A stretch of DNA of 64,000 nucleotides from an uncultured bacterium (GTDB taxonomy: Bacteria; Muiribacteriota; Ozemobacteria; Ozemobacterales; Ozemobacteraceae), in NCBI GenBank assembly GCA_937949615.1, contig CALEDQ010000018.1, positions 76,161-140,160 on the forward strand, written 5' to 3'. This document shows, piece by piece, positions 39,649 through 45,436 of the stretch. The notes beneath the pieces were generated by a model, which saw only the letters and a list, made by a program, of their open reading frames with translations, did no database searches and had not been told where the DNA came from. Position 1 is the first letter of the stretch; each line of letters starts with the position of its first letter. The position numbers and the translations under genes are program-made.

Positions 39649-41718
39649 ATGAGCTTTAAAACCTTGCCTGACAATCTTTTTGCCCGCACCAGAAAGGGTA
39701 TTGCGCTGTTTCTGGTGGTTGGCATGGTGTTCATCACTTTTCTTCTGTTTTTTTTCATGTCCCTGACCACCGGTCAGTTCAATTTCACTGCCCATCAGCA
39801 CCTTGAAACCGAACTGGCCTCACAGGCCGGCCGTGCCTTTGCCGATGCTTTCTGGGTTTTTGCCAAAGACGTTTTTCAAAACCGCAAAGGTTGCGACAGA
39901 ATTTACCCGGCACCCGGCACTCCAAGCCCACTTTACCCTTTTAACAAAACCGGTCTTGAAAAAATCGAAATCGGCATCGAAGATTTTGAAAAATCCGGGC
40001 AGATTCTCAACGCCTTCAAGGAAATTGAAAAACAGATTCCGGAGCTCAGCAAAACAAAAGCCAAAATGCATTTTAAGGTTCGCAAATCTTCAGACAGCTT
40101 TGCACATGGCGATTTGTGCCTGAATATAACATTCACTCTGAAGAATGAAGACTACTCATTCGACTATTTTCGTGAATTCAAGCTGATTCGCTGCCTGGCG
40201 CCGGTGGTGCCCAAATTTTCCTTATTTCTTCGCAACAATTCCGGAGACAATTCATACAATCGCATCATAAAAAGCTTTCAAGATGAACAGGGCCAGGAAA
40301 AGGCATTTGTAGTAAGCAATCACGAAACAGCGTATGTTTCAGGAGCAACCGACACCTGGAAAAGATCGGGCTGGATATTTCTAGGTGGCCAGTCAGTAAC
40401 CCTCAACCTCGACGGAACCCACCCCTGCCGCAAAGAGTCCGATTCATTCATGTTCTGGCCGGGGCTCTATTCAGACAGCCTGAGCCAGGCCCTGCCATAC
40501 TCATGCTCAAACTATATCGGCAGTTCTAAACTTCGGGTACGCTTCACTCCTTCAGGAGCCATGTCGGACTGGCAGAGCAGCGCTTTGTTAAAAGAGGTTC
40601 TGGGCGGCGTCAGCATGCCTTTTGTTTTAAAATCGAGCGTATTGAGACTCTTTGGCAATCGCGATAAAATCACACCAACAAAGGTTTTTGGCAGGGTTTT
40701 CACCAATTACGTGATTTATTCAACAATGATTCTTGACCAGAACAACGATTCAGTCGCTGATTCGATAACCTCTCCTCAGGGAGTCGAGCAGCGCGCTATT
40801 TTTCCTCTGCCACGCCTTGACAACAGCGGCCTGTTCAAGCCGCCAATCTTTCCAAGATTCGTTACCAATAAGGGTTACGACCTGTTTCTCGACTCAACCG
40901 GCGTCGAGGGAATTCCGGAAAAAATTGAAGATGTTTTTGCCTCTTACAATGGCGGAGACCCTGACTATGTTACCTATATGAGCAAACTAGTTAGAGATTT
41001 TTCTCCATCGACGGGCATCGAGGCCTATAATTCCCTCTACGACCAGATTTTTGAAGGTTCTTCCGAAACCAGCGGCAAAAGTTTTCCGGCCCCGCATATG
41101 TTGACTCAGAACAGCTACCCTGACGAAGGCAAAGACGTCGAAATCCCTCTCGATTACGCCCGCACCGAGCTCCAGTTCAAGGGCGACCTGAACAAGTTCG
41201 ACCCCGGCGCCTTTTTTGCCGACCTGAACATATATGGCCGAATTTATACAGACGAAAACGATTTTTTCAAAAACAGCGAAGTTAAAAGGGAAAATGAAAC
41301 CTTTCTGATCAATGATCCCATCGTTTCAAGAGTCTCAGGCTCTCTGACCATTGCCAACCCGGTTCAGGCCAACGCCCCGGCCGTAATAGTGTGCGACGAT
41401 GATTTGACGGTTTCTGACATTATTGAGTCAGCAAACGAGTCGAAATTAACGCTCGTTTCACTTAACGGCGACATAAAAATTACCGGAAAACGACTTGAAG
41501 GAATCTCTCTGATTGCTCCCCGCGGCGAAATTTTCTGGGAAGCACCGGTCGAAATCAACGGCAGTCTCTGCGCCAGAAACATCGCCCCCGCAACCTTTGG
41601 CCTTGGAGGCTCTCTTACCTGGGATAAAGGAATGGATATTTCAAGCGTCGAAACCGCTGCCAGATCTGTTGCTATTCTTATCGGCCCCAATATTACCCTG
41701 GTAAGAAAGGCTTATTAA
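39649..41718 (+). CDS. Large (689 aa) N-terminally anchored protein, putative giant GspK/PilX-like minor pseudopilin or pilus tip protein (module A)
   Basis: N-terminus TRKG|IALFLVVGMVFITFLLFFF resembles a prepilin site lacking Glu+5; paralogous to 55516..58047; immediately precedes two pseudopilin genes. Confidence 0.5.
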   Translation: MSFKTLPDNLFARTRKGIALFLVVGMVFITFLLFFFMSLTTGQFNFTAHQHLETELASQAGRAFADAFWVFAKDVFQNRKGCDRIYPAPGTPSPLYPFNKTGLEKIEIGIEDFEKSGQILNAFKEIEKQIPELSKTKAKMHFKVRKSSDSFAHGDLCLNITFTLKNEDYSFDYFREFKLIRCLAPVVPKFSLFLRNNSGDNSYNRIIKSFQDEQGQEKAFVVSNHETAYVSGATDTWKRSGWIFLGGQSVTLNLDGTHPCRKESDSFMFWPGLYSDSLSQALPYSCSNYIGSSKLRVRFTPSGAMSDWQSSALLKEVLGGVSMPFVLKSSVLRLFGNRDKITPTKVFGRVFTNYVIYSTMILDQNNDSVADSITSPQGVEQRAIFPLPRLDNSGLFKPPIFPRFVTNKGYDLFLDSTGVEGIPEKIEDVFASYNGGDPDYVTYMSKLVRDFSPSTGIEAYNSLYDQIFEGSSETSGKSFPAPHMLTQNSYPDEGKDVEIPLDYARTELQFKGDLNKFDPGAFFADLNIYGRIYTDENDFFKNSEVKRENETFLINDPIVSRVSGSLTIANPVQANAPAVIVCDDDLTVSDIIESANESKLTLVSLNGDIKITGKRLEGISLIAPRGEIFWEAPVEINGSLCARNIAPATFGLGGSLTWDKGMDISSVETAARSVAILIGPNITLVRKAY

Positions 41719-41719
41719 C

Positions 41720-42166
41720 TTGTTAAAAGCAAAATCTGCCCTTTCAATGATTGAGCTTCTCGTCGCCATAGCAGTCCTTGGCGGTGCCCTGCTGCCGATC
41801 TGGCATCTTCATTACCAGTCGACCAGGCGGGTCACCATCGGCGAAAACCAGACACTGCTCAAGAACATCTCTTTTGCTTTTTCAACGCAGGTCAGAAGAC
41901 TCAACCCCAATCTACTGCCCGTAACAAACGGTTATCAGAAGATTGAATTCAACGATAAGGGTCTTTATCATCTGGGCGGGCCTTCTTCGATAAACAACAT
42001 TGCCATCCCGGACTGGAACCCCACAACGATCGCCCTGAATTTTCAAATAAAGAAGCTGGCCGCAATTCCGCGCGACAACCGCCTGGTAATCATGAAAATT
42101 ACCTGGACGAGAAAAGATACAGGCCCAGCCGATTTTCTGATTCCGACACTGGTGTCACATGATTAA
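41720..42166 (+). CDS. Prepilin-type pseudopilin (module A)
   Basis: Class III signal MLKAKSA|LSMIELLVAIAVLG with Glu at +5; TTG start overlapping upstream stop. Confidence 0.65.
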   Translation: MLKAKSALSMIELLVAIAVLGGALLPIWHLHYQSTRRVTIGENQTLLKNISFAFSTQVRRLNPNLLPVTNGYQKIEFNDKGLYHLGGPSSINNIAIPDWNPTTIALNFQIKKLAAIPRDNRLVIMKITWTRKDTGPADFLIPTLVSHD

Positions 42167-44190: not shown

Positions 44191-44945
44191 TGGCAGCAGA
44201 TTTTTTCAACCTGATTCGCAAAAACCGCATAGCAGCCTGTTTTTTTTGCACCCTTCTAGCAATAAATTCCTCGGCGGCATTTGCGCAGCTCCCCCTGCCT
44301 CCGCTGCCTTTGCCTGATCCTTTTGGCATCTTTGGCAGCACCGATGAAGAAAAGGAAAAAGCCCTCAACGAAATCGTTTCGGTCGGTATGGAAAGAAAAC
44401 CGGCCGGAGTCGCGCCATACGGCCTTACCCCTTCTGGCGATCCATTATGGCCGATTCCTGACCCCGAACCGGCGAAAACTGCAACGGCAAAAATCGAAAC
44501 GACAAAGGCTGCCCCGGCAGTAATTACCAGCCCGTCATCATCTGGTCAGGTTACTAACGAAAAACACACCGAAACCATTAACTGCATGATCGCCAGAAAC
44601 AGTTTTGAAGGGCGCAACATCAGCCCCTTAATCAATAAAAACCTTACCGCAGGCGAAAAATCAGGTCTGCCCGGAAGACCGGCCGAAGATCTTTCTGACA
44701 AAGAAATCGAGGCTTTGCAGTATTCTTTCATTTATGATCTCCAACGCCATGCTAAATTTGTTTATGAGGGCAAAAATTCCATGGCTGCAGCTGTTGCATA
44801 TAAATGGAAATTAATTGGCAGTCTTCATTCAAACCAGATTGATGAAATAACCTTTAATATCGCGACAAAAAATAATTTTCCGAAATTCTCTTTGTGGATT
44901 GAATCTGTGATTGAACAGGACAAAAAATTCATCGAGAATCCATGA
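44190..44945 (+). CDS. Secreted hypothetical protein with LPLPPLPLPDPFGIFG motif
   Basis: Signal peptide ...SSAAFAQ; Pro-rich motif shared with next gene. Confidence 0.5.
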   Translation: MAADFFNLIRKNRIAACFFCTLLAINSSAAFAQLPLPPLPLPDPFGIFGSTDEEKEKALNEIVSVGMERKPAGVAPYGLTPSGDPLWPIPDPEPAKTATAKIETTKAAPAVITSPSSSGQVTNEKHTETINCMIARNSFEGRNISPLINKNLTAGEKSGLPGRPAEDLSDKEIEALQYSFIYDLQRHAKFVYEGKNSMAAAVAYKWKLIGSLHSNQIDEITFNIATKNNFPKFSLWIESVIEQDKKFIENP

Positions 44946-45436
44946 AGAAATCTAAATATCCTGGAGGGAACTTTATGAAAAGGTTTTTGAAAATAGCTTC
45001 TGTGTTTATGGTTATGGTCATGTTGCAATGCAATGCCGGCTTTGCCCAGACCATCAATAACAACAATGCCAACACCCAGCCACAGCAACAGCAGGGTTTT
45101 GGCGGCTGGGGCGGCTGGATGGCATTTCTTCCCTTCCCGCTCCCACCGATTCCATTGCCTTTCTTTGGTGGTTTTGGCATGGGCAATGCCGGCGCCGGGC
45201 AACAGGGAACGAACAACAACCAGAATGTTGTCGTCAATGGCGGTGGCAGCCAGGACAACACCCAGATGATGGAAATGATGAAACAGATTCTTGAGCTGCT
45301 GCAAAAGCGGCAGAATGAAGAAAATGCCTCTGACAGCTACCCGGTTGAAGGCTCTGAAGAAACCGTGTCAGGCAACGCAGTTCAGGATACCACCGAAAAT
45401 GAATCTCAGACCGGCGAAGGCGCATTAAACGAATAA
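44942..45436 (+). CDS. Secreted low-complexity (N/Q/G-rich) protein with LPFPLPPIPLPFFGGFG motif
   Basis: Signal peptide; shared Pro-rich motif; acidic C-terminus. Confidence 0.5.
   Translation: MKKSKYPGGNFMKRFLKIASVFMVMVMLQCNAGFAQTINNNNANTQPQQQQGFGGWGGWMAFLPFPLPPIPLPFFGGFGMGNAGAGQQGTNNNQNVVVNGGGSQDNTQMMEMMKQILELLQKRQNEENASDSYPVEGSEETVSGNAVQDTTENESQTGEGALNE

Follow-up and report, generated by a model that had tools for sequence, protein, structure and literature searches.

Satellite cassettes of Candidatus Riflebacteria encode candidate solenoid-bearing tip complexes for type IV filaments

Two paralogous gene cassettes, modules A and B, lie in a 64,000-nucleotide stretch of DNA (the window) whose source is Candidatus Riflebacteria. 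Each module is, in our view, probably a satellite gene set that supplies a type IV filament with its tip (priming) complex. Comparison with known minor-pilin sets yields GspK/PilX-, GspI/PilV- and GspJ/PilW-class counterparts for the three leading genes, and this assignment as a tip set is supported, with predicted models supplying the folds of the first and third proteins. The first-pass annotation had read module A as a satellite minor-pilin tip set under its own envelope-signal regulation. Its description of the genes is confirmed; of its interpretation, the satellite tip set is upheld, whereas the claim of dedicated regulation is weakened.

Results

Module A consists of seven genes on the forward strand, and an ORF check of the window found all seven where they had first been placed. 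A large gene for a 689-aa protein (39649-41718) is followed by those for prepilins of 148 aa (41720-42166) and 191 aa (42159-42734), an ECF sigma factor of 180 aa (42807-43349), a single-pass anti-sigma factor of 285 aa (43333-44190) and two signal-peptide proteins, one of 251 aa (44190-44945) and one of 164 aa that is rich in Gly, Asn and Gln (44942-45436). The sigma and anti-sigma genes overlap by 17 nt, the anti-sigma and 251-aa genes by 1 nt, and the 251- and 164-aa genes by 4 nt.

Module B (55516-63454, forward strand) repeats this architecture and is a true paralogue: a profile of the 689-aa family matches its 843-aa large protein (55516-58047) with E=7e-12, in the N-domain and in the C-terminal GGxxxYxxxxDP motif. 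This protein has 44 homologues, all of them from Riflebacteria where named. Downstream lie a 181-aa prepilin (58044-58589; KNG/LSMVE, with the slash at the predicted cleavage site) of PilV/GspI class (PilV TIGR02523, 2.4e-7; XpsI, 1.9e-4) and a 203-aa prepilin (58595-59206; QSG/FTFVE) of GspJ class, which aligns with the 191-aa family and matches N_methyl at 3.6e-4. Two signal-peptide proteins of 276 and 592 aa (59256-61861) come next, and then, recognized by Pfam, an ECF sigma factor (196 aa) and a zf-HC2/FecR anti-sigma factor (329 aa) at 61918-63454. Neither the 276-aa nor the 592-aa protein has a significant Pfam match; the latter appears helical or coiled-coil by eye and shows weak TPR matches. 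A GC-rich hairpin (CCCCGGCCGGCC...GGCCGGGGTTTTT) with a T-run stands upstream of the module B sigma gene. On the reverse strand between the two modules (49751-50599) is the gene for a 282-aa protein with a Secretin_N domain only.

Are such modules present in relatives? We found approximately 25 related cassettes with kept gene order: the succession of large gene, pilin and pilin is invariant in these ~25 loci wherever downstream sequence suffices, the 148-aa gene always lies downstream of the large gene, and each cassette also contains genes for secreted proteins. The genes flanking the cassettes differ from genome to genome. Paralogous copies number at least three in Ca. Ozemobacter sibiricus, two in the window and three, in tandem, in locus L012. 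The family of the 689-aa protein comprises 561 clusters at 50% identity, is conserved over its full length down to 30% identity, with invariant residues, and is annotated as 'hypothetical' in every named member.

The N-terminus of the 689-aa protein reads ...RTRKG/IALFLVVGMVF, with Leu instead of Glu at +5. This bears out the earlier observation of a prepilin-like N-terminus without Glu+5 (RKG/IALFLVV), while the epithet 'giant' given to the protein is overstated. The same pattern is seen in the large proteins of other cassettes (RKGFSIFLVV), and homologues whose recorded sequence retains the N-terminus also have the Glu+5-less form; several others start after the motif or lack it. Searches of Pfam, NCBIfam and PDB sequences gave no family match for the protein, and the PilX_N, T2SSK and HpsA models gave no Pfam match at E<=1 in 17 members of the family.

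Structure prediction returned a long N-terminal helix, a three-stranded sheet and a C-terminal solenoid, with a pLDDT of ~90 in those parts. The N-domain (approximately residues 9-181) is predicted to adopt the pilin-type arrangement of a long alpha-helix on an antiparallel beta-sheet, and residues ~497-687 form a triangular beta-solenoid resembling ice-binding proteins, after which the DSSP string of the model has a terminal strand (674-687). About a third of the protein (188-354 and 469-490) is poorly modelled, and the whole-model pLDDT of 69.7 corresponds to moderate confidence. The fold, which is modelled as resembling those of ComZ and GspK, is in line with the tip-pilin reading and suggests that the 689-aa protein is a GspK/PilX-class tip pilin of the solenoid-bearing type.

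The two proteins that follow are indeed prepilins, each with Glu+5 and a prepilin leader. Their N-termini read MLKAKSA/LSMIELLVAIAVLGG in the 148-aa and MIKNQKKA/FTLIESLIVITILAILL in the 191-aa protein, and both display the features of a class III signal peptide (short basic leader, Gly/Ala end, Glu+5, a hydrophobic stretch of ~20 residues). The residue at -1 is Ala in module A, in contrast to Gly in most orthologues of both. The N_methyl model matches the 191-aa protein above the Pfam cut-off (E=5e-8) and the 148-aa protein below it (E=0.012). The 148-aa gene has a TTG start with AGAAAGG 8 nt upstream; gene callers place the start at an internal ATG (139 aa), so that the prepilin leader is lost and the pilin signature hidden. 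Among its orthologues, five of 16 match PilV (TIGR02523; best 2.4e-7) and three of 16 match XpsI, all below threshold, and the module A protein itself matches neither model. Judged from these sub-threshold orthologue matches, the 148-aa subunit would belong to the GspI/PilV class. As modelled, the 191-aa protein adopts the fold of GspJ, and its best structural matches are GspJ proteins of type II secretion systems (T2SS). Against the GspJ equivalog model TIGR01711 it scored 19.6 bits, short of the cut-off of 64.85, and nine of 14 orthologues matched GspJ at E<=0.01 (best 5.7e-10), all sub-threshold; it is GspJ-like rather than a GspJ equivalog. A fourth minor pilin of GspH/FimU class was not found in the cassette.

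Both proteins encoded at the end of module A carry Sec-type signal peptides by eye (...AAFA/Q in the 251-aa and ...AGFA/Q in the 164-aa protein), in agreement with their description as secreted. The 251-aa protein combines a Pro-rich linker with a conserved C-terminal region of ~90 aa and has no Pfam or PDB match. In most cassettes, distant ones included, a homologue of it comes after the two pilin genes; it belongs to the conserved core and is retained more consistently than the sigma pair, a point that the first-pass annotation had missed. The 164-aa protein is found in closer relatives only. An LPxPP(L/I)PLP..FG motif is common to the two proteins and conserved in both.

The sigma factor of module A is well recognized (Pfam Sigma70_r2, 6.7e-11; r4_2, 3.9e-12; Sigma70_ECF, 1e-9; NCBIfam TIGR02937, E=1.8e-28). 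Its partner has a transmembrane segment between an N-domain with a readable HxxxCxxC motif and a periplasmic FecR domain (Pfam, E=8.6e-8), as well as weak anti-sigma N-terminal matches in NCBIfam. The proposal of a translationally coupled pair with zf-HC2 and FecR domains holds with regard to the gene overlap, FecR and the cysteine motif, but zf-HC2 is significant in module B only. An ECF sigma factor with such an anti-sigma factor is of the FecI/FecR type; the scan of window proteins turned up neither a TonB-dependent receptor nor an STN domain.

Another important question is whether this pair governs the cassette. It is present in eight of the 14 scorable cassettes and absent from the other six (~40%), it is cleanly missing in relatives 78-84% identical, and its position within the cassette varies. 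The six cassettes without it retain all other genes, under apparent purifying selection. The ECF/FecR pair is a facultative add-on to the cassette. A candidate sigma-70-type promoter of the large gene and the two pilin genes is predicted by a consensus scan at 39589-39617 on the forward strand (TTGACT-17 nt-TAACAT); its -35 and -10 hexamers are kept in two loci without the pair (L004 and L008), and this predicted promoter appears conserved with or without the pair, as judged by consensus match. The sole ECF-like promoter candidate, CATCCAC-N14-TCGTT (42743-42768, forward strand), stands in front of the sigma gene itself. Its end blocks are conserved and its spacer variable between the window and L007; it occurs once in the window, and one match also arose in 16 of 100 shuffles. 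The pair probably controls its own expression and that of the genes that follow it, in module A those of the 251- and 164-aa secreted proteins. The pilin genes, which have a predicted housekeeping-type promoter, are probably not driven by it. The missing pair in ~40% of cassettes, its variable position, the sigma-70-like promoter present regardless and the position of the sole ECF-like candidate before the sigma gene weaken the notion of regulation by an envelope signal of their own.

The window ORFs scanned include no GspE/PilB, GspF/PilC, full secretin or prepilin peptidase; the 282-aa Secretin_N-only protein is the one caveat. Neither a GspE Walker-A nor a Walker-B motif occurs in any window ORF, the window yielded no Peptidase_A24 gene, and no major pilin was found alongside the cassette. 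A complete T2SS locus just outside the window would have made the modules ordinary parts of it, but within 10 kb of either end (~84 kb covered in all) there is no assembly machinery, and nowhere in this region do ATPase, platform, secretin and prepilin peptidase stand together with pilins. Around the ~25 related cassettes no GspE/PilB ATPase motif was found up to 10 kb on each side (less on short contigs), nor were assembly-gene Pfam families present in the gene-annotated related loci. The absence of a local ATPase, platform and full secretin is borne out, and with it the satellite nature of the minor-pilin set.

Discussion

How might such a cassette work? We propose that a prepilin peptidase encoded elsewhere would process all three pilin-like proteins, and that the 148-, 191- and 689-aa subunits would pack together by their N-terminal helices within the inner membrane, as a heterotrimer like GspI-GspJ-GspK. 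Machinery of the type IV pilus or type II secretion-like kind, together with a major pilin, also encoded elsewhere, would then extend the filament beneath this complex, and the bulky beta-solenoid of the large subunit may end up at the extremity of the filament, where it would serve as a plug and as a head for ligand binding. This role is modelled by analogy on proposals for Thermus ComZ and for cyanobacterial PilX/HpsA. The several divergent cassettes per genome are most likely alternative tips with different binding specificities.

The trio could instead top a T2SS pseudopilus, as the equivalent of GspI-J-K, and cap a short piston in the periplasm by which substrates are driven through a secretin; the signal-peptide proteins of module A (251 and 164 aa) and module B (276 and 592 aa) would be cargo or adaptors. 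The structural matches of the 191-aa protein to T2SS GspJ, the XpsI matches in the small pilin family, the co-encoded secreted proteins and the composition of the trio, which without PilY1 is that of a T2SS tip complex, all point this way. On the other hand, a head of ~500 extra residues would need room inside or below the secretin, a T2SS would not usually have many paralogous tips in one genome, genes for GspG/H, E, F, L, M, C or D are absent nearby, and solenoid-bearing K/X-class subunits have so far been described for type IV pili (ComZ and cyanobacterial PilX). We consider this reading unlikely. That the solenoid pilin and its partners form a ComZ-like receptor that binds extracellular DNA at a competence-pilus tip seems very improbable: sequence similarity to ComZ is nil, no ComEA, ComEC or DprA is linked, and neither several divergent paralogues per genome nor linkage to ECF switches and secreted proteins is expected of a single uptake receptor.

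Just as little credit is due to a stand-alone envelope sensor, in which the pilin-like complex stays in the inner membrane and, forming no filament, signals the presence of a ligand from outside or from the periplasm to the FecR-type anti-sigma factor, perhaps by way of the 251- and 164-aa proteins. It would suit the ECF/FecR pair embedded in eight of 14 cassettes, the lack of machinery nearby and the conserved proline-rich motif common to both secreted proteins, but pilin folds and Glu+5 are hallmarks of filament subunits, and the cassettes that lack the sigma pair keep everything else. Finally, the view that the ORFs arose by chance or are genes in decay, their hydrophobic N-terminus being a coincidence, draws on nothing but the missing database annotation; it is refuted by the conservation of the 561 clusters and by the gene order shared among the ~25 loci, and its probability is negligible. 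The preferred reading remains a satellite tip complex of a type IV filament.

Membership of the modules in the Verru_Chthon families was also considered. Verru_Chthon cassettes (TIGR02596/02598/02599/02600; Verrucomicrobia, Chthoniobacter) are multi-copy, phylum-restricted sets of prepilin-type and large proteins located away from assembly genes, and in being repeated, phylum-restricted sets of this kind they are like those of Riflebacteria. We rejected membership: the matches cover the N-terminal 30 residues only, at E=6e-4 to 0.03, far below the cut-offs, and the family is a different one. In T2SS, the insertion of GspK is an alpha-helical domain of ~100 residues, not a solenoid. The GspI-GspJ-GspK tip (PDB 3CI0) is encoded in the order H-I-J-K, whereas the Riflebacteria order is K-I-J, without GspH and without a surrounding gsp operon, and all NCBIfam scores of the Riflebacteria pilins fall below the curated cut-offs.

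Closer parallels exist. ComZ of Thermus thermophilus (PDB 6QVI) has a pilin fold with a beta-solenoid and is argued to be located at the tip and to bind PilA2 (PMC6561018). A PDB sequence search detected no similarity between the 689-aa protein and ComZ, which with PilA1-3 belongs to the competence pilus tip. The Riflebacteria large protein moreover has an extra ~300-residue unmodelled region, and its cassette is not part of a pilus operon that includes a major pilin, is repeated several times in a genome and adds secreted proteins and often an ECF pair. All cyanobacterial PilX proteins are described in a preprint (bioRxiv 10.64898/2026.02.12.705559) as having an ice-binding-protein-like triangular solenoid and are proposed to be tip plugs. 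The PilX-Com and PilX-EPS/HpsA sets resemble those of Riflebacteria in this solenoid-bearing PilX-class subunit, in lacking PilY1 and in the proposal that alternative minor-pilin sets of one genome prime different filaments on shared machinery; they differ in including a FimT/FimU-class fourth pilin, and no ECF linkage, which is frequent in Riflebacteria, is described in the parts of the preprint consulted. NCBIfam HpsB/HpsC models reach only E=0.012-0.077 on the Riflebacteria cassette, and the large proteins match no NCBIfam model. The cassettes look like a phylum-specific variant of the design known from Thermus ComZ and from cyanobacterial PilX, often but not always with their own sigma/anti-sigma switch.

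An ECF sigma factor with a single-pass FecR anti-sigma factor in a multi-paralogue envelope-apparatus cassette also recalls the FecI/FecR systems of Bacteroidetes polysaccharide-utilisation loci, from which the window differs in that no TonB-dependent transducer or STN domain was detected among the proteins scanned. Any signal sensed by the pair is hypothetical. As a speculation with a small chance of being right, Riflebacteria might run a library of interchangeable ligand-specific solenoid tips with their own secreted partners, and in about half of the cassettes ligand engagement by the tip, or the state of the pilins in the membrane, might be reported to the FecR-type anti-sigma factor. Cell-surface signalling would then pass through a type IV filament and not through a TonB-dependent transducer, in an organisation akin to that of polysaccharide-utilisation loci.

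Conclusions

The analysis proposes a role for a large family that has no annotation and is restricted to one phylum, and it carries a lesson for annotation, as the miscalled start of the 148-aa gene masks its pilin identity. It would extend the ComZ/cyanobacterial PilX design, in which a solenoid head on a tip pilin replaces PilY1, to a third, deeply branching lineage, which would support the view that the design is an ancient and widely applicable way to cap type IV filaments. With their divergent heads, conserved secreted companions and optional ECF switch, these multi-copy cassettes offer a natural test of tip swapping for changed adhesion or uptake.

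Results

Layout of the two modules

All seven open reading frames (ORFs) that the first-pass annotation had assigned to module A were found at exactly the positions described, on the + strand. They form two groups, genes 1-3 and genes 4-7. Within each group neighbouring genes either overlap or lie close together, and 72 nt separate one group from the other. The first group consists of the 689-aa large protein (39649-41718), a 148-aa prepilin (41720-42166) with a TTG start and an AGAAAGG ribosome-binding site 8 nt upstream, and a 191-aa prepilin (42159-42734; N_methyl E=5e-8). 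The second comprises an ECF sigma factor of 180 aa (42807-43349) and a FecR-domain anti-sigma of 285 aa (43333-44190), both identified by Pfam and NCBIfam, followed by secreted proteins of 251 aa (44190-44945) and 164 aa (44942-45436). The N-terminus of the 689-aa protein (RKG|IALFLVVGMVF) is hydrophobic and prepilin-like and lacks Glu+5, which is present in both the 148-aa (A|LSMIE) and 191-aa (A|FTLIE) proteins; most orthologues of these two have Gly at -1. The N_methyl match of the 148-aa protein is weaker than that of the 191-aa protein and falls below the Pfam cut-off (E=0.012). In public gene calls this first prepilin (window 41720-41747; 9589-10008 in L020, the matching JGI contig) begins at an internal ATG (139 aa, MIELLVA...), which removes the leader peptide and cleavage site and therefore leaves it without a pilin annotation.

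The same order recurs in module B (55516-63454), as had been proposed, with two extra signal-peptide proteins ahead of the sigma pair. The module B anti-sigma gene has a GTG start, and its start is probably placed differently in public gene calls. BLASTP barely links the 689-aa and 843-aa large proteins (E=0.002), yet the 689-aa family profile matches the 843-aa protein at E=7e-12, with the similarity lying in the N-terminal domain and in a GGxxxYxxxxDP motif of the C-terminal part; the two modules are therefore old paralogues. The G+C content around module A (40001-46000) is 0.45-0.48 compared with 0.50-0.56 in most of the window; together with flanking genes that differ between genomes, this is compatible with either mobility or rearrangement of the cassette.

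Classes of the three pilin-like proteins

What kinds of pilins do the three leading genes encode? The AlphaFold model of the 689-aa protein, built from an alignment of 17 sequences (pLDDT 69.7, pTM 0.59), contains two confident parts, both with pLDDT of about 90: an N-terminal helix (9-78) with a second helix (116-129) and a three-stranded sheet (133-181), and a C-terminal beta-rich domain (about 497-687), whose last strand spans 674-687. Residues 188-354 and 469-490 are unreliable. The model of the 191-aa protein reached a pLDDT of 64, owing to a shallower alignment. In NCBIfam, the GspJ model matches nine of the 14 orthologues of the 191-aa protein (best E-value 5.7e-10); of 16 orthologues of the 148-aa protein, five match PilV and three match XpsI. 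Every one of these scores falls below the curated cut-off. The three leading genes thus appear to encode K/X-class (GspK/PilX), I/V-class (GspI/PilV) and J/W-class (GspJ/PilW) minor pilins, the same three kinds of subunit as in the GspI-J-K tip complex, and the K/X-class subunit of module A is predicted to be of the solenoid-bearing kind.

Assembly machinery in the window and its flanks

The first-pass annotation had regarded module A as a satellite tip set with no assembly ATPase, platform or secretin encoded locally. The Pfam scan, which covered the larger window ORFs judged to be genes (mostly at least 110 aa), found no GspE/PilB, GspF/PilC, secretin or prepilin peptidase among them; among those scanned are genes for histidine kinases, ABC exporters, CorA, a hybrid Cache kinase and housekeeping functions. 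Regular expressions written for the Walker A and B boxes of GspE matched nothing in the window or in any of the related loci collected, and a prepilin motif occurs in only four window ORFs, two per module. The 10 kb adjoining the window on the left carry genes for an MFS transporter, a hemerythrin and hydrolases; on the right, the adjoining 10 kb contain PHA synthase genes together with genes for an aminotransferase and a thiolase. The window scans and these flanks bear out the local absence, so neither module marks the margin of a T2SS or T4P locus.

A 282-aa signal-peptide protein (49751-50599, -), encoded 4 kb from module A on the opposite strand in housekeeping surroundings, carries a single Secretin_N domain (E=2e-11) and is kept in L020 and in the related locus L021. 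Its C-terminal ~160 aa, about half of the protein, resemble a secretin core by eye (...GxxxxFGGL), with no match to Pfam Secretin or to any PDB sequence; the protein may be either a mini-secretin or an N-domain-only partner. Elsewhere in the window, an 848-aa protein (30761-33307, -) with a Major Vault Protein shoulder (E=5.6e-30) and Vault_3 repeat domains, and a 781-aa protein (15804-18149, -) with VIT and vWA domains, the types found in vault-associated inter-alpha-trypsin-like proteins, look like a set of bacterial homologues of vault proteins; L020 carries the MVP-like gene too. A lone BMC-domain (microcompartment shell) protein is encoded at 47440-47778 (+), with no further microcompartment genes nearby, and two TrmO_N paralogues (47708-48292, +, and 51648-52421, -) lie less than 4 kb apart.

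Conserved and optional cassette members

About 25 related loci were collected from GTDB genomes, metagenomes and exact-protein look-ups and annotated with the window proteins by phmmer and hmmsearch. Wherever the sequence extends past a gene of the large-protein family, two prepilin genes come next, so that the big-pilin-pilin module recurs in relatives. This synteny and the modelled folds of two of the three subunits support the satellite tip set. Most module A-type cassettes also contain a 251-aa homologue, in the order big, pilin, pilin, 251-like, even where identity of the large protein has fallen to 30%; the 164-aa protein is found in closer relatives only. The 251-aa and 164-aa proteins (44190-45436) have in common a proline-rich motif, LP(L)PP(L/I)P(L/F)P(D)(P/F)FG.FG, kept in both across the clade that has both (L004, L006-L009, L029), which is a candidate docking peptide. 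In L018, a distant module B-type cassette, a dockerin/EF-hand signature in the protein after the two pilins (14035-15696) hints at scaffold or calcium binding as a possible property of the variable secreted partners.

The ECF sigma/anti-sigma pair, which had been taken to place the set under its own envelope-signal regulation, is present in eight distinct cassettes (window, L007, L013, L015, L016, L027, L032 and L034), ahead of or behind the 251-like gene, and absent from six (L004, L006, L008/L029, L009, L014 and L031); L012 is ambiguous. Since the pair is optional, this claim holds only in part. The large proteins of L004 and L008 share 84% and 78% identity, respectively, with that of the window; both cassettes cleanly lack the pair, and their flanks align up to the junction. 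The polymorphism sets window 42734-44190 against L004 13084-13284 and L008 13054-13261, which are alignable for ~50 nt beyond the pilin stop codon and then diverge. Among module B-type cassettes, the pair occurs in the window and L018, and in neither of the Ozemobacter loci L017 and L019.

Genes flanking the cassettes vary between genomes, and the Ozemobacter sibiricus MAG has at least three cassette paralogues. L012 (1-16698) carries three tandem cassettes, the third in pilin-pilin-big order with a 591-aa RKGFSIFLVV protein; its neighbours are a FecR-like protein and one of 482 aa in which a zinc-finger motif of the anti-sigma type (…HMESCPACS…) is recognizable by eye. Clustered cassettes were also seen at L032 1792-5316 (-) and L034 5006-17155. 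A pilin-pilin-743-aa set in L032 escapes the 689-aa family profile, so further large-subunit families exist.

Candidate promoters

The 689-aa gene is preceded, at a distance of 32 nt, by a sigma-70-like candidate promoter, TTGACT-17-TAACAT. L004 and L008, both lacking the pair, retain its two hexamers, and a strong TTGAAT-16-TATAAT lies upstream of the distant L015 cassette. Because this type of promoter is conserved in relatives without the pair, transcription of the pilin genes by the ECF sigma was rejected as the default interpretation. Ahead of the sigma gene, within the 72-nt gap, the window and L007 share a candidate ECF-type motif, CATCC(A/G)C-N14-TCGTTT, with a spacer that is not conserved; in the window it occurs once, at 42743-42768, and one match was also obtained in 16 of 100 shuffles, giving weak statistical support. 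AAC-N15-17-CGT(C/T) is visible ahead of the sigma genes in L015 and L016, and a GC-rich hairpin with a T-run precedes the module B sigma gene. The stretch retained after the pilin in L004 contains an ECF-like motif, AAAC-N17-CGTC, yet this cassette has no sigma gene. The window proteins scanned include no TonB-dependent transducer. Our tentative reading of these motifs is that the pilin genes may be transcribed from a housekeeping-type promoter, and that the ECF pair would control its own expression and that of whichever genes follow it.

Family size and taxonomic range

For the 689-aa and 843-aa proteins, word-indexed searches returned 19 and 44 homologues, respectively; all named ones belong to Candidatus Riflebacteria, Rifleibacteriota or Ozemobacter and are annotated as 'hypothetical'. 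An exhaustive profile search with the 689-aa family gave 561 cluster representatives (50% identity) at E<=0.001, 338 of them at E<=1e-10. Most listed matches are 640-750 aa long, the exceptions being partial sequences and a few of up to about 820 aa; two of ten representatives sampled had an organism name, both Riflebacteria. A region of the 1.25-Mb JGI contig Ga0079955_100002 (JGI 3300005804) matches the window in gene order and gene lengths, with the 191-aa pilin 98% identical. Pfam, NCBIfam and PDB sequence searches gave no match for the 689-aa and 251-aa proteins, nor did Pfam and NCBIfam for the 164-aa protein. Membership of the Verru_Chthon cassette or Hps pseudopilin families was rejected, the NCBIfam matches being N-terminal only and far below cut-offs.

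Discussion

A search for published work on pili of Riflebacteria or Ozemobacter found nothing relevant, and the precedents come from other phyla. Thermus ComZ, which binds PilA2 and DNA, has been argued to fit only at the pilus tip (PMC6561018). According to a 2026 preprint (10.64898/2026.02.12.705559), every cyanobacterial PilX homologue has a triangular solenoid, similar to that of ice-binding proteins, set into its pilin fold, and this solenoid is proposed as a tip plug in place of PilY1. The same work finds one PilX subfamily homologous to HpsA and reports that each of two alternative core minor-pilin sets primes its own kind of filament. The Riflebacteria large proteins are predicted to combine a pilin fold with a solenoid, as ComZ and cyanobacterial PilX do, without detectable sequence similarity.

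How, then, might the cassette work? We propose that a prepilin peptidase would process the three pilin-like proteins, which would assemble in the inner membrane as a GspIJK-like heterotrimer and prime a filament on a T4P or T2SS-type machine, putatively encoded elsewhere. The solenoid head would serve as filament cap and ligand binder, and divergent paralogous cassettes would supply alternative tips. The GspI-J-K-like composition and the conserved secreted partner can also be read as a T2SS pseudopilus tip whose cargo would be the secreted proteins encoded alongside it, a reading that we consider less likely. The DNA binding of ComZ brings up a DNA receptor of the same kind, which we regard as very improbable. 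We give similarly little credence to a membrane sensor acting independently of any filament.

The preferred reading is a solenoid-bearing PilX/ComZ-type tip set, that is, a known design in a new version. This set is matched by no existing sequence model; it is restricted to one phylum, multi-copy and composed of three pilins only, with a conserved non-pilin secreted partner and, frequently, an ECF switch.
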